Shown in pieces: positions 1 to 11,334 of a stretch of DNA of 64,000 bases. The translations under genes were made by a program, and so were the position numbers. This DNA comes from Amphiscolops sp. MND2022 (Eukaryota), in contig OZ076409.1 of NCBI GenBank assembly GCA_964187785.1, positions 37,574,001 to 37,638,000 on the forward strand, in the 5' to 3' direction. Position 1 is the first letter of the stretch; each line of letters opens with the position of its first letter. The notes under the pieces were generated by a model. That model did no database searches and was not told the DNA's origin. It saw nothing but the letters and a program-made list of their open reading frames with translations.

Positions 1-2
1 AA

Positions 3-2759
3 ATGAAAGTCATATCGTACAACTCTCGTATACTTAACCCACAAGAACAAAAACTCTCCACACTTGATAGAGAACTCCTTGGTATAGTACACGCACTTCA
101 AATCTATGAATTTCTTATCATAGGTTCTCCACATCCAATACACATTTTCACTGATCACAAACCTTTATTACATTGTTTTACAAAGAAAGGTAATCTCAGC
201 CCTTGTTTCTATAGAGCTCAAATGCAATTGACAAAATTTTCAAAACTCAAAATAATTCACACCCCAGGAAAAAATCTCTCTGTTGCCGATATGTTGAGTC
301 GCTCATTCACAAAAACTGAATTACAACTTAACCAATTAAAACATAAACACCTCCCACCACAAATCGATTTTGCACTTATACAAGATAACACTCTTAAACC
401 TGTACATTACTTAATAAAACATGAAGAAATTTTACCTCATCAAAAACATGACTCTCATCCAATTCTTGCTGATTATGGTACAGATCAATTTTCTATTCGT
501 ATCAATGATAAAGGAAATGACATTATTGTAAAACCCTTACAATCTTTTTCATTCAAATCTGTAACTCCTTTTCAAACCAAATTTAAGACACCTACAAAAA
601 GGAATAACAAAACCCTTCATCAACAATCTCTCTTACTCAATGATACTGACGTTACAAGTGATGACGAAGATCATATTTACACCAGAATTCCAAAACCTGA
701 CTCTTCCTTCTCACAAGATACTACATTACAAACAGAAAATTATTCTACTCTTAAACAACCAAGTCACAACACCTCACAGAAATCAATTTCCGCAATAATT
801 GTACAACCAAATTTACCATCTCTCACACACTGTCAACAAATTATACCTTTTTACGATACATCATTTTTTAAGTACAAAAACTATTTTCAAGGTTTCTTCC
901 TCCCTGATGATTACTCCTTAGACATAAAAACTCTTCAACAACAACAATCTCAAGATCCGGTTCTCAGAACTGTTTATTCTTGGTTACTAAATAATGAAAA
1001 ACCCGAATTTATAACACCTCTTATCACTGGTACTCCATTTCTACATGTATATTACAAAAGATTTTCACAACTTTTCATTGATGAATCCACTAATCTTATT
1101 AGTTTGTATATTACAAACCCCACTGTTAATAACCAATCCTCTACTCCAAATTTTGTACAAGATACTATTCGCATATGCCTACCTTTTAGACTGTTTAAAA
1201 CTGTCTTTAACAAACTTCATGAACATTCTCACACTGGTATGAAAATCACCTACAATACATTCAAACAATATTACTATATTCCATTCCTTGAAAAATGGCT
1301 TTCCATTTTCATCCATGACTGTATTGAATGTCAACGTAATAAGCACTTCAATATGAAAATTCAAACTGCTCCTACACAATCATTTTCAGAACATGCTCCA
1401 TCTTTCAACTATAGAATCTCAATGGACACTAAAGGACCTACTAATCCTCCTTCTCATAACAAATCCTATATACATGTAATAATTGACGCTTTTAGTCACT
1501 TTGTTGTTACAGTACCCATCAAATCAAACAACGCAAAGACTGCTATCAAAACTCTCCTACACCATTGGATTATTAAATTTGGAACACCCATATACCTTGT
1601 CACTGATCGTTGATCAGAATATGTTAACAAAGAAATGGCACACCTTTGTACACTTATGGGAATTCGTCATTCTCCTAGAACAGCTTAATCTCCTTGGACA
1701 AATGGACTTGTTGAAGTACAAAACAGAAATCTTGGTACTCATCTTCGAATGTTCCTACATGACACACCTAAAGATTGGGCATTTCAAGTCCATATGTATG
1801 CTTATGCACATAATTCACAACCACTTTCAGAACTCAATGTTTCACCTCACGAAATTGTTTTCCATACTAGACCCAGAATACCCCTCACATTTGATTTAAA
1901 CCTTAATCGAGATACCTCCAAGACATGTATTTCACGCTATTGCTCTCAACTCCCTGAACACTCTCACTATGATAAATCAGATTTAAACCCATTCTTCTAC
2001 AAAACACTTTCAAAACCCATTCCCCAATGGTTTCTCGCTGTAGAAACTGCTATGTTACAAATTTATTCCACAGTCTACGAAAACACCCTACGAAAAATTA
2101 ATTCACACGCATACATTACAAAAACTTACCACGAAGGTAAACCCCTTCCTACTGGTACCTTTGTTTTAAAACGCAATTTTACACATGTTCACTTTTCAGA
2201 CAAACTCAAACCCCTTCGGATTGGACCATATAAAATTCTTGACAGACTATCAGACGTCACATATGCATTACTTGCACAAGATGGCTCTACAATACACGTT
2301 CATAGAAATCATTTAATCCCATATTACCCTAAAGAACCACTCTTATATCCACATTTGCGTAATTTTATGCGCTTTTCAGACACAACTCAAAACCAAATTC
2401 CACAAATTACCAGATATGCAAACAGTGATTCTTCCCCGTTTAACTCTGATGAATCTTTGTCTGAAGAAGATTCTCAAACATTTATGACACCACCGTCATT
2501 TAGTACATCCAATCAAAATACACCATCTATAACATCCAATGACAAGTCTTTACCTTCCTCAACCAATGACAACTCCTTATATAAACATATAATTAATACC
2601 CCTCACACTAATGTCCCTAGTGACAGATCGAGACACCCTTCTAACAACCAAACAACTTCACTTCCTCCTCTAATTGACAGAACCACAAAAACCACTTATA
2701 AACTACGACAACAACCCAAATTAGATTATAGACTTTTTATTACACCTTCACAACTGTAA
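3..2759 (+). pseudogene. pol: pol C-terminal half: RNase H, long linker, integrase (HHCC, DDE, GPY/F); two in-frame stops
   Basis: RNase H motifs ELLGIVHAL...TDHKPL...VADMLSR; zinc finger HEHSH...CIECQ; catalytic ISMDTKGP, LVTDR*SEY, NGLVE; GPY/F module KLKPLRIGPYKI. ORFs 3..1613 and 1749..2759 share one frame, broken by TGA 1611-1613 and TAA 1686-1688. Confidence 0.93.
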
Positions 2760-2884
2760 TCTAGTCACTCTATCTGTTGGCTTACTCAAAACTAGTCACT
2801 CCGGTTGAATGAATATTGAATGAATGAAATATAACCCATAACAAGTTATCTTAAAGATAACCTGTTGAAAACACTTCAACAATC

Positions 2885-4117
2885 CTGGATCCTCCCTCTG
2901 ATATCTCTCCATCAGCTCCAAGTCTTCCTTCTACACCTGAATCTTCAGTATCAAACACTACAAACTCTAGTAATGTAACTCCTACTACTCCTTCTAAAAG
3001 ACCCAGATCATACATTTCTGAAACCACTTCTTCTTCACTTCTTCACAGACCACCTATAACCGAAATTCCTATAAACACTCGTCCCCAACAAACTCCTATT
3101 AACACTCCTATTATACACATACCAAACCCTGAAAGTGTTGAACAATACGTAACATACAAACACCCTACAGCTATCAAAACTGTTAGACTCCAACCTCAAC
3201 TTAATCTTGTACAAATTCCTGATCCTGAATATACGAAACTACCTCCACTAAAATTACCTTCAGAACTTAGCACTACAGAACTTAGCACTACTTCTTCAAA
3301 ACTTTATCCACCCTTAAAACCTCTTCGAAAACCCTCTACATCACTCTCAAATCTCTTAGACAATAATACTTCTGACTACGCTCCATCACAAGACACAAGC
3401 TCATTTTTTGTACCTAAACATAGATACAATCTTCGTGACCTTCCTTCACGCAGACTTAGTACAGACACTTCCACACTCAATTTTTCCGCTCTTTCTAGCA
3501 ATTCTGCATTACGACTTGTCAGACAACACGCTCAACCATTGTCCTCTGACCCATCATCTTCAGAACTCTTCCAATCTCCTTATTTTACTTCTGGTTTTGA
3601 AACCGCTTCATTACTTTCATCTAACCCACAAACTGCATTTCTATCAGGAGATCTCTTTTCACAAGTAGTAATTCCTACTCCTGTTCCTGCACATATTAGA
3701 CTACCTGAATACTATACTGCAGAACATTCTAGACCTCCAACCCCAAATTTTGCTGATTATCCACTTCGAGTCGATGGTATAACTATCTACGACCCACAAA
3801 ACGATCCTCGATTTCCAATTCTTGCAGAACGTTTTATTAATAACAACGATCTCTTATCTCATAAACGTAAAGAAACAGAACTAAAACGTCTTCAGACACC
3901 AAATTTAGAACTTAAATTTGAAGTCAAGGTCAAATTTCAAGGATTAAATCCTCATCCAATATTTCACGTTTCTAAAATAGAACATAAAACCTCTCCTGCT
4001 CCTTTTGAAGTAGTACATATTGAATTCGAACGCGATCTTAATATACCCACTATCACATATGGCAACATTGTCTTCTGTAACCCATACTCTGGTCTCAAAT
4101 ATAAGACATCCTTTTAA
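2885..4117 (+). CDS. ORF2 of retroelement: ~410-aa Pro/Ser/Thr-rich protein with a putative globular C-terminal domain (candidate matrix/budding protein)
   Basis: The frame of track ORF 3539..4117 is open from 2861 with no ATG. The first plausible start is CTG at 2885 in a strong context (A at -3, G at +4). Contains PSAP (2909-2920), LYPPL (3302-3316) and RYNLR (3422-3436). Confidence 0.7.
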   Translation: MDPPSDISPSAPSLPSTPESSVSNTTNSSNVTPTTPSKRPRSYISETTSSSLLHRPPITEIPINTRPQQTPINTPIIHIPNPESVEQYVTYKHPTAIKTVRLQPQLNLVQIPDPEYTKLPPLKLPSELSTTELSTTSSKLYPPLKPLRKPSTSLSNLLDNNTSDYAPSQDTSSFFVPKHRYNLRDLPSRRLSTDTSTLNFSALSSNSALRLVRQHAQPLSSDPSSSELFQSPYFTSGFETASLLSSNPQTAFLSGDLFSQVVIPTPVPAHIRLPEYYTAEHSRPPTPNFADYPLRVDGITIYDPQNDPRFPILAERFINNNDLLSHKRKETELKRLQTPNLELKFEVKVKFQGLNPHPIFHVSKIEHKTSPAPFEVVHIEFERDLNIPTITYGNIVFCNPYSGLKYKTSF

Positions 4118-6764
4118 ATCCTACACAACCTCTTATATAACAACTATAATTTTCTTACATTTCTTTCACTCTACCTTTTCCATACCTATAGTACTCCCTG
4201 ACACAGAAAACTATCTTCCATCGGATGACCCGAATATTACAAATCTCATGGTTTCTCATTATGATTGTGCAAAACAACACAATCTCCGACAATTTAATCT
4301 ACTTAATGTAAAACAATGCACTGAAGCTCCTTCTGACATTAAACATGCAAGTGTTAAAGCCCGTGTATATGTCCGAGCAAAAGCTAAACGTATCAAAGCT
4401 TTCAAATGTGTTGCTTATGCAAAGAAAGAAAGGAAAATATGCTTTCAAGGATCTGTCAAATACCGTCGTGTTGATCGAACCGTATGGAATCATAATACAT
4501 TACCTCTTCCTGTTACTCTTGATCCGGTAGAATGTAAAAACATTATAAGACATTTAAATGGTACAAATGATAAAATATTGAACAACCTTCACTACAACAA
4601 AACATTTACACTCTTAGAAGACCATTATTTTCAAGAACGTTTAGAACAATATCAAACTCTTTTCACTGTATATCAATTGAACAAAATGTATACAGGTACA
4701 TTTACATTTATGCCTGCTGATAAAAACTGGATATATGACCCTACAAAAAACCCTTGTCATAACTGTCCTGCTCATCATCAATTCGAAGTCAACTTAGTTA
4801 GTTGGCGACTAGAAGTTTCCGAAATAGAACTTACATATGATGACACATCAAATGACATGATAATTGATGGACATACATTACCCTGCTATTTTGCAGATGG
4901 CTTTTGTAAACCCACTACAAAAACTCCTTTTACTCTTGTTTGGTTTAATGATGATTATTGTCTAATTTTTACCCTACAAGACTTTAATGGACGTATGACT
5001 AAAATTGAAGATAGATATTGGATTGAAACAGACTCCTTTGTACATTCTCCACATTCAGTAAAATCTCAAACTGCTTCTGGTATAAAAGGTACAGAACATC
5101 TTTATGTTCATGCTCCCCATACACAACATCCAAATAACCCAAGTCTTTCAAGATTTGAAGTTTTTCCTACAGCACAAACCTTTTGTGGTAAACCAGACCC
5201 TCTCTATTCTACACAATACTCAGACCTTTTTGTTACATACACTGATGGTTTTAATATGCATACAGGACAACCTAATCCTCATTCCATAAGTGATGAGTAT
5301 ATCTCTGGTAAAATAGTATTGGACACTTCAAAAAACAAATTTGTGTTTCCTGCATTAAATGTATCAAACAATTTCGCTACCATTGATTTTGATGCACATA
5401 TAAACACCAAAATTGACTACACTATTAATCATGTTTTTCGATCAATGACAGTACAAGAACTAAATACTCTTCATACAATATGTGAACTAGAACGAAATCA
5501 ACTTCTTACAATACTCGCAATGTCAGTACAAAATCCTCAACTTGCTGGTTTCCTTTTAACCGGTAATAGAAGTAACTTCTTATACGTTGAAGGCTCAACC
5601 GCCTGGCTTTATGACTGTCCTCATTTTTTATCTCCTTTATACAAAGCAGATAGATGCTTTGACCGTATACCCATACATTTTAAAGATACCTTAATGTACG
5701 TTGATCCTATTACAAGACAAACTTCTGATTATGCTACACCAATTACATGCGATAATAATCCACGTAACATTATTGAACTCGACCCTGATTCAGATGATCA
5801 AGACTTTTACATTCTTGGACCTGAACCTATCAAACCAAACCTCCACTAATGTTTACACCCTCACAAATCAAAACTACAATACGCCCTAATACTTTTACAG
5901 CCCAAGATGCTGGTATATATTCAAATGCAGAACTTGATCAATTTTGGAACCGTATTTTATTTTCTAAACACTCTGATTCTACACTTCAATTGCTAGGTAA
6001 AGCTCTTAGTTATTCATTCATTTCATCTAATACTCCAAATTACGATGCAGATTCCCCTCAAGACTCTGGTAATCCTTACAATACATTACGAATAGGACTA
6101 CATAATAAACTTTTGAATTTAACTCCTCTTTTCACACCTACATGGTTCTCTGATGCTTTTATTGCACTCTTTGGATACCCTTGTTACATTCTTACACAAT
6201 GTGGCATATACTTTTCTACATTTCTTTTTGTACAAGCTACTCTTACACTTATTGTTAAACTTTACAAAACAATATCCATTAAATATAATCTTAAAAATAA
6301 TATTACTTTACTTAGTTCTATTGCACATGGTTTTTTTTAATGTTCTTACAGCACGAATGGTCAGTGACCTACATGAGACTCAAAACAAAAAACCCAAAAG
6401 TACACTTTCCAAATCCAAATCTTTAGATAACTTTATTGACACTTCTCCAAATTTAATTAACCATTCTACAGATGTTACTTCCCCTCCACCTTTTTATACC
6501 AAACGATCTAACAAAATTCAATTTCCTAAATTTAACTTCTTTCCGAAACGACACCACAATTCTCACCATAAAACGACTCCACTTCCTTTCTCTTCTATCC
6601 AACATCCCCCACTTCCTAATTATACTCATAAAAACTTTCACTCGAATGACAATCTAACTACTCAACCTGACACTTTAATTAACAATTCTGTCACTTCTAC
6701 TACGGATACGCCAATTAAAATCTATTCACGAATAAACTATCCTTTTCCTCCTCCATCTTCTTGA
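4059..6764 (+). pseudogene. env: env: ~900-aa envelope glycoprotein, chuvirus/Monjiviricetes-like class III fusion protein; two frameshifts
   Basis: ATG 4059 and a hydrophobic signal-like segment (ITTIIFLHFF); motifs HYDC..N..LLNVKQC, CELER..L..LA, C.DRIPI..DP.TR..C and GIYS..EL; TM segment CGIYFSTFLFVQATLTLIV; Pro-rich tail. A 1-nt loss near 5836-5838 and a 1-nt gain in the T-run 6331-6338 join track ORFs 4020..5849, 5849..6340 and 6153..6764. Confidence 0.8.
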
Positions 6765-7013
6765 ACTCTCTCTCAGTTCTTCTATAACTCTCTTCCAGAA
6801 CACTCGCCTACTATTTCTTCACAATTGCTACTCCTCCACCACTTGAAACTCTTGCAGAAATTCATCTTCCTCAGTCCAATAATACTTCTCTCATAATAAC
6901 CATCTTAAAAAACTCTTCAACTAAAGTTGACAAATCCACTCGTTAGTGTAATTTATAGTACTTTAACTTTAAAGTGCTAAGGCCTCTTGGAATAGATAAC
7001 ACTGTGACTGTTG

Positions 7014-8357
7014 ATGCTTTCTCAAACAATGACACAAGCACAAATTGATCTACAAACACAGCTTGAACAAGCAACCCCAACAGATCTTATAACAAGACCT
7101 CTTTCAAATGATTCTCCTGTTCTCTATATTGACACTTCTGACAAAACACCTCCAACTTTTCTTGAACCAATGGAACCCACAAAAGTTGAAAATGAAAATC
7201 CAAAACCTACTCCTCCACAAGATGATACTGATCATACACAATCGACACCACCTCCTCCAAAAAAGCGATATGAAATAATGAAAGATCCAATCTTTCTTTC
7301 ATCACCAATATATCCTCCTTCAATACCTTCAAAAATTTCACTTTGCACGAATCGCGATGATCATTTGATCTCAATTCTTTCCACTGACGATTTCGTCTTC
7401 AAAGCACAACTAACTTCTCTATATATGCATCCTACTGACTACTCATTTCGCTTATATGACAAAAATCAAGACTTCTTCACATCCATTGCTTCCAAAATAA
7501 TGGGTCCATACCAATATTGGCTCGAGAATGGAGTTAAAATTTTCTCTCTCCAATTCAATTTTCTTAGACCTTCTATATACGATCTCAAAACGGATGAATC
7601 TGATCCATCCTTTCTCTCTATAGCACAAAAAGCTTCTCATCATCAGACATATACTAACTTTCTACAATACACGAAACCACAAAATTATATTTTTGTCAAT
7701 TACAAATATACATCACCGTTCACAATGACAAATATGTACACTCTCGATCACTCCTGTATAACAGGCTACCTTCGGAACTATGACCCTATAAAGCAATACT
7801 TCTGTTTGCTTCCATATAACAATACTTCACGTCCACTTATTGTACCTCAAGAATATCTCATACATTACGATGATTTTTTGTTGCCTTGCAACATCCCTAC
7901 TCAAATTGCAAAACCTCTTACTGTTATTAAACACCTCGTTTCTTCTCCACTTGACGATAAAGATAGAACATACTATACAGCACTCTACAAACAAACGTAT
8001 TCCTACAATGAACTTCTCTTTATATCTGCCAAAACTATCTCTTTCATGGTACAAGCTGAACAAAAACCTGAACATAAATCACACACTTCGCCCATCAAAA
8101 ACACTCATGACAAACTTTCCTCTGTATTAACCAATCGAACACTTCGAGACATAACAAATTTACTGGAACCCTATAAACGAAACTCCTCTGAAACACCTAT
8201 CACAACACTCACACATATACTACACTGTTATGACAGAACACACAAACTCCTTCAGACACTCGATTTAGACTCTCAACGCATCACTCAATCATCCCAAGCA
8301 ATCCAATCTGCTTTGGAAACTATAACTACTCTTTTTAATTCAACTAATCTTCATTAA
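7014..8357 (+). CDS. Orphan accessory ORF4 of retroelement (447 aa)
   Basis: Uninterrupted 1.3-kb ORF from ATG 7014, with the same strand and base composition as pol/env. Pro-rich N-terminus with PPPKKR, aromatic-rich middle and helical C-terminus. No family recognised. Confidence 0.75.
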   Translation: MLSQTMTQAQIDLQTQLEQATPTDLITRPLSNDSPVLYIDTSDKTPPTFLEPMEPTKVENENPKPTPPQDDTDHTQSTPPPPKKRYEIMKDPIFLSSPIYPPSIPSKISLCTNRDDHLISILSTDDFVFKAQLTSLYMHPTDYSFRLYDKNQDFFTSIASKIMGPYQYWLENGVKIFSLQFNFLRPSIYDLKTDESDPSFLSIAQKASHHQTYTNFLQYTKPQNYIFVNYKYTSPFTMTNMYTLDHSCITGYLRNYDPIKQYFCLLPYNNTSRPLIVPQEYLIHYDDFLLPCNIPTQIAKPLTVIKHLVSSPLDDKDRTYYTALYKQTYSYNELLFISAKTISFMVQAEQKPEHKSHTSPIKNTHDKLSSVLTNRTLRDITNLLEPYKRNSSETPITTLTHILHCYDRTHKLLQTLDLDSQRITQSSQAIQSALETITTLFNSTNLH

Positions 8358-8766
8358 ACTCCTCTACAGGTAATATAAAGTTTTAAATTTTCTTCTCTGG
8401 TACACTCTATGGTACATCTGTGGCACATTTTACAAGGTATTTGCATTTTTTTAAACAAAAATCCTTATTTTTGAATGAAATCTCAGGACTGTTTTTTAAG
8501 TACACTAATTTTTCCTACAGTACATGTCAAAAAATAACTATTTTTTTACTCAAAACACTACAATACAAGACATACAAGACAATCTAAAATAATACTACAT
8601 ATGGTACATTATAGCACCCATTTTTGTTGTACATCTTTGACTTGATATTGTCATTCTTCTTACACTTCCTTTGTTTTAGAAACATCCATTCTTCCTTCTC
8701 CTTCATCCAAATTCTTTCAGAACATCCCAACTTCTCTTTCTTCGTATTCTTCAAACTCTCGTCATA

Positions 8767-9219
8767 ATGGCTCCAAATGCTGAAACAAACGACATTCTAA
8801 CAATGACTTCAGAATTTTCGAAAGTCCATAGTCTTAAAGCCGCCATATTTCATACCATGGCCTTCAAACTCTCACTTGAGATTCACAAAAACAAAATTAC
8901 GCCAAAATGTCTCATCGCTTTCTTAAAAGTACTCTACAATGTCACGCAAATAAAGAAAAAGAAAATCACTTTCGAGCAATACTCGCGAATCCATCTTCAA
9001 GGACCTAAAATTGCCATTTGTGAAACGGCATCTAATGTTGTTTTCGTCCTCAATTCGTCCTTTACTTCAAAGGATCAGTACTTTCGTGCTGCTATCCAAG
9101 AAGCTACAGATGCCTTTAATAATATGTTGCAAGATTTCGGGTATACTCAACAACTAGAACTTTATGACCCGATACAACATCAACCTCATCCTCCATCGCA
9201 AAACCCTCTATTTCAATAA
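8767..9219 (+). CDS. Orphan accessory ORF5 of retroelement (150 aa)
   Basis: ATG in good context (ATAATGG), intact 150 codons, KKKK basic patch, same strand as the other element ORFs. A pyrimidine tract + AG at ~8664-8679 could be a splice acceptor. Confidence 0.6.
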   Translation: MAPNAETNDILTMTSEFSKVHSLKAAIFHTMAFKLSLEIHKNKITPKCLIAFLKVLYNVTQIKKKKITFEQYSRIHLQGPKIAICETASNVVFVLNSSFTSKDQYFRAAIQEATDAFNNMLQDFGYTQQLELYDPIQHQPHPPSQNPLFQ

Positions 9220-9573
9220 TCTCTAACACAAACTCCTACTTACTTCTATTTCACTCTTTGACTACATTTCGTCTCCAAATCCTTCATCTTCTTTCGATGA
9301 TGCTTCGAAATGTGGTTGATGATTACTTCCAAGAACTCCTACACATGCTGAAACTCTTCACTTCACCCACCCACGATGGTCAACAACATCCATCTACACT
9401 TTGGGTTCATCGACGTTGCCAAAAAGTGTCCTCGTCATCAGTCTTCACACCTCAACTGCTGACTTCGTGAACTGGTCTTCATACTTCAATGGCCAATACA
9501 AATTTCAAACTGAACTGTATAATCACTTATAATCAATATAACCTGTAACCTAATTTAATCAAATCATAATATA

Positions 9574-9690
9574 GACTAGTGCTATATACTCGTATCTAAA
9601 TTTTAGTGCTATATAATCTTATCTAATCGTAGTATACTAGTGCTATATACTCCTATCTAATCTTTAGCGCTATATAATTTTATTTAACCT
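9574..9690 (+). repeat. Short tandem array in the retroelement 3' non-coding region
   Basis: Four TAGYGCTATATA cores arranged as two ~62-bp units. Confidence 0.7.
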
Positions 9691-11334
9691 TAATCTTATC
9701 TAACCATTGTATAATTACCCCCCATTAACCATAATCCTTCCCAAATTCTACCCATAATTATTCTTGTAACCACAATATTATTTACTTCCATTGTATTGTG
9801 TATAGAACTTTAACATTATCTTACATAATTATCCACTTCAAAATACATTTTAATCCCCGTCTTTTTACAGAACACAAGTCCTACTTACAGCACAAGAAAT
9901 TTTCTAAGATTTTTGGACAAAAATTTTTCTTTTACAAAACATGTTTTACAACTTTCCTTTAACCCTCAAAAGCATTCCCAAAAAATTTTTTCAAAATTTT
10001 CTTTCGAACTCTTAAAAATTGTCACTTGTGAAAAATGTCACTTCTAGTTTTCAAATATTTGAAACTTGAAATAGCCAAAGTTTTTTTTTCAACTCTTGCT
10101 TCTGCTCTACTCTTCACTTTTGTTGAAAATGAACTCTCACTCCAACCTTGACTTTTCAAAACTTCTTCACTTTTGGTTCACATACCCGCCAATGTTGGTT
10201 CACAATTCATTGACAACTTCACGCTTTAATTCCTCAACTTGAAAAGTTTTCAATGCTGACTAACTCATGTTGATGAAACAAACTTTTTCAACAAGCCGAT
10301 GGCTGATACGTATGAAAAAGAAACATGAAAGAATAAATAGTTGTCAACAATAACTTCAAAGAACTTGTCAGTCAAAGAAACTGAAAGAACTTGAACCTGT
10401 TTGAACCTTTTTGCACCAATTGAATCGTCTATGACGTAAGAAGTCAAATCGTCTTAGGTTGTTCTCACTCCTTAAGTATGGTACTCTACAAAACGAAACT
10501 CATGCAACTGTAATACAACACATATGAAACAAACCCATGCACATAACAAAAACTTCTAGAACTCCTCAAACTCAAAAGTGCATATATGTAATTTTTATTT
10601 TTCAAATTCCCGGTTGATTGTGATGCCATGATGCATGTCCTCAAAGATTTTATAAATCTGAAATACTCTGAACTTTTAACAGAAGAAAATAGTAAATCTA
10701 ATTGAATCTAGAAACTAATTATTCTAGAAGAAACTTCATTTAATAGATCCTGTATCAAACTTCCCTGTTTCATCCTGTTGCTGTCACATTATTAATTGAT
10801 GCAACCTACCCTAGTTAATAAAATATATCTACTCGGAGAAATTGAGAATTCTTCCTAGCAATCAGTCTTCTTCCAGCACTTCAAGAACTGAGATCTCAGA
10901 AATAGATTGTACTCTGAACTAGCTAGCTACCAAGTATAAGATAAAATATAAGACGACTCTGCTGTTAAAATCTTAGACTTCTTATGTCAGTTCTAACTCG
11001 TATAAAAGAAACAACTACCAAACTTTTTAACAGCTCAAATGAAAGAAATCACAACGCAAAATGATAGCTTTGTTTACATGCAGTCCAAATTATTTGTTTA
11101 AAAAAAATAAGAGTTCAGTTCTTTTCTTACACTTTTGTATTTCTAAAGGTTCAAACAATCCTTAGTTGAAGATGTGATTATGTAACTCAAGCTTAATTTT
11201 AATTACTTAATAGAACATTTGAAAGAATTTAAGATTCTTGTTTAGAAATAAAAACGACTTCGAGGACGCAAATTTTCTTGCGGCCTGCCCATCTTGAGTA
11301 ACCCAAATAACTGAACGCGTTCGGGTTTTTGGGT

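Follow-up and report, generated by a model that had tools for sequence, protein, structure and literature searches.

An AUG-less accessory gene directly upstream of env in a giant Ty3/gypsy element

Related systems and the setting of ORFX

Gypsy elements carrying a gB-type env are known and widespread (PMC13524379). One of the closest described systems, the ancient errantiviruses of that survey, shares with the element reported here its LTRs, a gag with a CCHC knuckle, a PR-RT-RH-IN order, a class III env after pol and many near-identical copies; the main text of PMC13524379 contains no match for "matrix" or "splic". Two other systems resemble the locus in how an ORF may be expressed. RTBV (ORF I-II-III) is likewise reverse-transcribing and has a first ORF with a non-AUG start and no internal AUGs, through which ribosomes scan about 900 nt to the next ORF while tolerating short internal uORFs (PMC5902531). 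HIV-1 vpu-env and SIV rev-env place an accessory ORF directly before env on one RNA, with leaky scanning between the two (PMC5902531). Retroviral late domains are described within Gag, such as PSAP/LYPAL/PPPY in MLV, YPDL in EIAV and those of HIV p6, and of these motif types YPxL is a ligand of ALIX and P[ST]AP of TSG101 (PMC8402826). The literature listed by our searches offered no description of an ORF before env of the kind reported below, and PMC7923801 added nothing on it; the supplementary element list of PMC13524379 may tell whether this clade has been recorded.

The window, a stretch of 64,000 nt from a host genome of 1.07 Gb that is probably that of an invertebrate animal, opens inside a Ty3/gypsy element of about 18 kb. 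This length was derived from a 420-bp LTR match, the 3′ LTR at 10619..11038 being 99.0% identical over 420 bp to L031:3061-3480; this and all features below lie on the plus strand. The domain order is that of Ty3/gypsy, with gag and its CCHC knuckle followed by PR-RT-RNase H-IN and an env-like fusion gene also present; gag, protease and RT precede the window start. The window itself begins with the 3′ part of pol (RNase H and integrase, 1..2759), which in this copy is interrupted by in-frame stops at 1611 and 1686. A non-coding pol-ORFX spacer follows at 2760..2884, 125 nt long in this copy and 79-350 nt across families, and then ORFX. Next comes env (4059..6764), which matches the class III fusion profile Monjiviricetes_fusion PF24664 (E 3.5e-18), carries a PPxY in its tail and in this copy has frameshifts near 5830 and 6330. 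Downstream of env are ORFY (7008..8357, 449 aa) and a second post-env ORF (8680..9219, 179 aa), both without a family match. The window copy is damaged in gag, integrase and env, but its ORFX frame is open. A strong C-over-G skew of the plus strand (-0.2 to -0.5) runs over positions 1-10500 and stops at the LTR. Compared with the ancient errantiviruses, the element is larger and has three extra ORFs, and its pol-env gap of ~1.3 kb exceeds the 500-1000 nt allowed in the survey (PMC13524379); surveys that require pol and env within 1 kb pass over such elements.

The existence of a separate gene at this place, with a frame open over 2861-4117 and a 59-nt overlap with env, had been proposed in a sequence-only reading of the locus. 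The frame is indeed open for 418 codons plus a stop, and the env ATG at 4059 gives the overlap of 59 nt. Counted from the putative CUG start, the ORFX coding sequence occupies 2885..4117 and encodes 410 aa. The window frame contains zero Met residues, a point absent from that reading. Gene callers miss or shorten AUG-less ORFs, making ORFX a member of a hidden gene class, and database entries for it begin at internal codons (for example, one of 192 aa).

We gathered relatives from one genome, using the env family and diverged domains as queries, which yielded the sister families A (subfamilies A1-A3, the window belonging to A1), B and C; the ORFX proteins of B and C are 39-48% identical to that of the window. 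Counts of frames below refer to 115 natural stop-to-stop frames that contain the C-terminal domain preceded by at least 240 residues and have both ends inside the locus. Shorter or broken frames were dropped from this set, which consists of top search matches in one genome, counts some loci twice and represents three independent families. Protein searches added families D (P0184 and P0432), E, a decayed F and a large, distant G, the relatives listed being unnamed ENA entries. Families D and G are known from protein only, and the CTG start described below was read in A, B and C. Family G aligns with ORFX only in the C-terminal domain, at about 30%, and there too an ORFX-type gene lies directly before a glycoprotein gene (P0389). 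A C-terminal domain identical to that of the window occurs at 150 or more genomic places, among 5645 first-look candidates.

Selection was evident over the whole of ORFX. In nine of nine pairs dN/dS was 0.10-0.26 in the Pro/Ser/Thr-rich N-terminal part, showing that this part of the open frame is conserved in sister elements, and the last 140 aa gave 0.04-0.08, again in all nine. This purifying signal and the recurrence of the frame in diverged families support the proposal of a separate gene, and by its pattern of substitution ORFX is a real, selected, AUG-less accessory gene.

Late-domain motifs and a candidate role in budding

The N-terminal part of ORFX contains PSAP, a TSG101-type late domain, at 2909..2920 (residues 17-20), and LYPPL, an ALIX-type YPxL late domain, at 3302..3316 (residues 148-152), exactly where the sequence-only reading had placed them. 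Its caution that short motifs of this kind can arise by chance was well founded: shuffles of the window N-terminal part produce YPxL in 12%, [LIF]YPxL in 2% and P[ST]AP in 5% of cases. The weight of the motifs therefore lies in their conservation across families and not in single-sequence odds. YPxL is found in 113 of the 115 frames, with codons that vary synonymously, in both D-type proteins and in 39 of the 45 family-G proteins that reach the site, and is broken in some copies, among them the remaining two frames and six G proteins; L201 reads LYSKL. PSAP is present in 79/83 frames of families A and B, 8-9 codons after the CTG and in four codon spellings; all 32 family-C frames and 117/118 family-G proteins lack it. 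The expectation that both motifs persist against diverging flanks thus holds for YPxL in all families readable at the site (A, B, C, D and G) and for PSAP in A and B, but not for PSAP in C.

Neither P[ST]AP nor YPxL occurs in the Gag frames of the five ORFX-family loci sampled (L031, L152, L153, L214 and L215). PPxY is present in the Gags of families A and B, and the env cytoplasmic tail carries a PPxY in all three ORFX families (window ~6480-6500), so ESCRT could be reached without ORFX. Matrix (M) proteins of Mononegavirales have late domains in a disordered region, and Gag and M resemble ORFX in presenting P[ST]AP and (L)YPxL within disordered, Pro-rich sequence. ORFX differs from both in that its motifs sit in a separate protein outside Gag, and no matrix fold was matched.

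Judged from the motifs, the most likely function of ORFX is that of an ESCRT adaptor, a prediction to which we give about an even chance. ORFX would recruit ESCRT via YPxL (ALIX) and, in two families, via PSAP (TSG101). Its disordered N-terminal part would present late domains absent from Gag, and the folded C-terminal domain would anchor ORFX at the budding site through a presumed partner that may be the Env tail, Gag or the membrane. ORFX may then work like a matrix or late-domain protein, with no implication of descent from a viral matrix. We counted against a role in budding that env families of the same genome without ORFX are also multi-copy. The best overall explanation, to which we likewise give about an even chance, is that an AUG-less gene encodes ORFX as a probably CUG-started accessory protein, which is co-expressed with Env and would serve as a budding adaptor of its own.

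The main rival is a role at chromatin. According to this explanation ORFX is CUG-initiated but nuclear, with a tethering or regulatory function exerted through a YNLR motif (3425..3436 in the window) and nearby basic patches, and YPxL is kept for some other reason. The chromatin-binding sequence of foamy virus Gag reads YNLR, and in ORFX the motif is found in 108/115 frames, at a chance expectation of 0.2-0.3% per sequence, and is kept in families A, B, C and D. A similar motif ends pol: in 8/9 elements shown it reads Y[NK][LF]R, which presumably resembles a chromatin-tethering sequence. We also counted in favor of this role that an Arg anchor attaches foamy virus Gag to the acidic patch of the nucleosome (PMC6042332). 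However, YNLR is found in 0/118 family-G proteins, where LYPxL persists, and assembly accounts better for the coupling to env and for the two kinds of late domain. A chromatin role is therefore unlikely, roughly one chance in five, but it is the strongest alternative to the adaptor. As a separate observation, pol ends at window 2697-2759 and at the same place in B and C with Y[NK][LF]R-x-x-P-x-x-x-Y after a low-complexity tail.

The start codon and the coupling of ORFX to env

Of the 115 full frames 112 are Met-free. An R-N-N-CTG-G in the reading frame is found close to the 5′ end of 107; in five of the eight others the frame is broken and the site survives immediately beyond its limit. In the window this site is ATC-CTG-GAT (2882..2890, CTG at 2885), which we designate as the putative non-AUG start from its conservation and from a published context rule: A+5/U+6 enhances CUG starts, and A-3, G+4, A+5 and U+6, all present here, form the best CUG context (PMC524250, PMC5902531). 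CTG-GAT is found in every haplotype listed, and the A at -3 is constant while positions -2 and -1 vary (ATC, ATA, AAT, AAC, AGC, ACC). Among 51 invariant columns of degenerate residues in seven diverged sequences, only the Leu of this site uses a single codon; CTG accounts for 4/318 of the other Leu codons in the same sequences, and synonymous changes are seen in the codons that directly follow the conserved CTG. The stretch of open frame preceding the CTG ranges in family C from 7 to 85 codons and the CTG-to-stop length is 444-447 aa in 28/30, and the pol-ORFX spacer is rich in indels. A near-cognate codon in strong context thus sits at the 5′ edge of coding constraint, and these patterns make it very probable that ORFX is translated from the conserved CUG codon. 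A CUG start kept across families about 40% identical would be a clean natural case of non-AUG initiation in a retroelement.

AUG codons are scarce from the start of the ORFX frame to the env AUG, with 0-2 found against 6.7-9.8 in dinucleotide shuffles in all seven elements compared. When protein and codon usage were held fixed in synonymous shuffles, out-of-frame AUGs fell below expectation in ORFX (C P=0.003, B 0.032, A 0.058, family A alone not being significant) and in 0/11 other ORFs. The scarcity is not absolute: ORFX of families A and B still contains 1-4 short frames that open with AUG. We counted against the proposed start three further short AUG frames in the spacer of subfamily A1, 61-76 nt upstream of the CTG. 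Across families, the position of the env AUG relative to the ORFX stop ranges from 59 nt before it to 96 nt after it.

The conserved CTG-GAT and the scarcity of AUGs up to the env AUG together suggest that translation starts at the CUG and that env is reached by leaky scanning. Part of the scanning ribosomes would start at the CUG and make ORFX, and the remainder would pass through 1.2-1.4 kb with few AUGs before reaching that of env, a division that would set the ORFX:Env ratio. We consider it likely, with less assurance than for the CUG itself, that ORFX and env share an mRNA on which env is reached in this way. The known systems differ in several respects. RTBV is a plant pararetrovirus with an AUU start after a shunt and a polyprotein downstream, whereas ORFX has a CUG and env downstream and its mechanism is deduced; HIV-1 vpu-env and SIV rev-env use AUG starts and spliced RNAs and have no homology to ORFX.

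The alternative that ORFX starts from an upstream AUG on a spliced-on exon, or by reinitiation, with CTG-GAT serving as an RNA or DNA signal, is improbable. We counted in its favor that splicing generates the RNA for env of Drosophila errantiviruses and that about 10 nt preceding the CTG are invariant in family C. Family B has AG dinucleotides upstream of the CTG, so splicing is conceivable there. However, in A1, A3 and the L050 type of C the sequence from the last in-frame stop to the CTG is free of AG, leaving no usable acceptor dinucleotide there, and synonymous changes have removed the AG within PSAP from A3 and B. These absences and the synonymous variation of the CTG-proximal codons make a spliced-on start unlikely, and the exact -3/+4/+5/+6 pattern also speaks against it. 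A spliced AUG would, in addition, leave the scarcity of Met and of out-of-frame AUGs unexplained.

The C-terminal domain and other ORFs of these elements

The folded C-terminal domain of ORFX spans 3692..4114 in the window. An AlphaFold model built on 111 sequences (pLDDT 88, pTM 0.71) consists of a hairpin, two helices and five strands, and a first fold model had the same elements. The earlier suggestion of a beta-rich domain in the last ~130 aa was therefore correct as to folding and the five-stranded beta part, and needs amendment in that two helices are also present and the domain covers the last ~140 aa. No transmembrane segment was found in ORFX. Sequence, profile and structure searches with ORFX named no family or known fold, and no viral matrix protein was among the matches listed. 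The matrix fold raised in the sequence-only reading is thus not supported by the matches listed, though the domain may have such a fold all the same.

That reading had also suggested capture of a matrix gene together with the glycoprotein. ORFX would then be a true matrix protein acquired, with its class III glycoprotein, from a negative-strand RNA virus as an M-G module. A disordered N-terminus bearing late domains, joined to a soluble domain, is the general layout of rhabdovirus M, and ORFX has such an N-terminus, a soluble alpha/beta domain and no membrane anchor; it also lies directly before an env of the Monjiviricetes_fusion family. Against this, ORFX is ~410 aa long with a domain of ~140 aa, and the other env-bearing families that we sampled in this genome, which have short Gags, showed no ORFX match in the vicinity of env. 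The lack of such a match and the short Gags fit a later gain of ORFX in one clade better than capture with env, and env capture by these elements has been argued to be ancient (PMC13524379). The joint capture is accordingly not supported, and we regard it as improbable. Finally, the view that ORFX is no gene and owes its open frame to chance, on a strand rich in C and poor in G whose strong skew lowers the frequency of stops and AUGs, is rejected by dN/dS far below 1 in both ORFX parts and is further opposed by homologues at 30-48% identity and the confident fold.

Returning to the predicted budding adaptor, we propose more tentatively, and at somewhat less than an even chance, that a clade of giant invertebrate-type gypsy elements moved budding from Gag to an accessory protein of new fold, with a CUG start and a bicistronic ORFX-env RNA. 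If true, a functional matrix would have been invented independently, and there would be evidence that such "retrotransposons" bud through ESCRT as enveloped viruses. The envelopment and cell exit of env-bearing invertebrate retrotransposons are largely open questions, for which ORFX offers a concrete candidate with defined motifs.

Several other features of these elements were observed. Families A, B and C all have ORFY (window 7008-8357), at an identity of about 40%. Family C has a 320-aa frame that overlaps integrase in another frame (L050:2162-3124, L051:2293-3255, L054:2295-3257). The Gags of ORFX-bearing families (L031:4584-5357; L153:6047 onward) have an N-terminal domain of ~250 aa without a Pfam match, which could itself be a matrix equivalent, and a long Pro/Ser/Thr/Gln linker between this domain and the capsid. 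The short Gags of ORFX-less families start with YPDL (L204:6792, L205) or FPDL (others), a feature of probably structural nature, even if YPDL also serves EIAV as a late domain. In ORFX-less families with env, an ORF located after env contains a TRAF/MATH domain (L042:7636-8409, L044:7481-8302, L059:7406-8557, L053:7798-8823), which matches PF21355 with E about 1e-22 in 3/4 and is apparently a captured host signalling domain. The TRAF/MATH post-env ORF of L044 and L056 ends in LYPPL.
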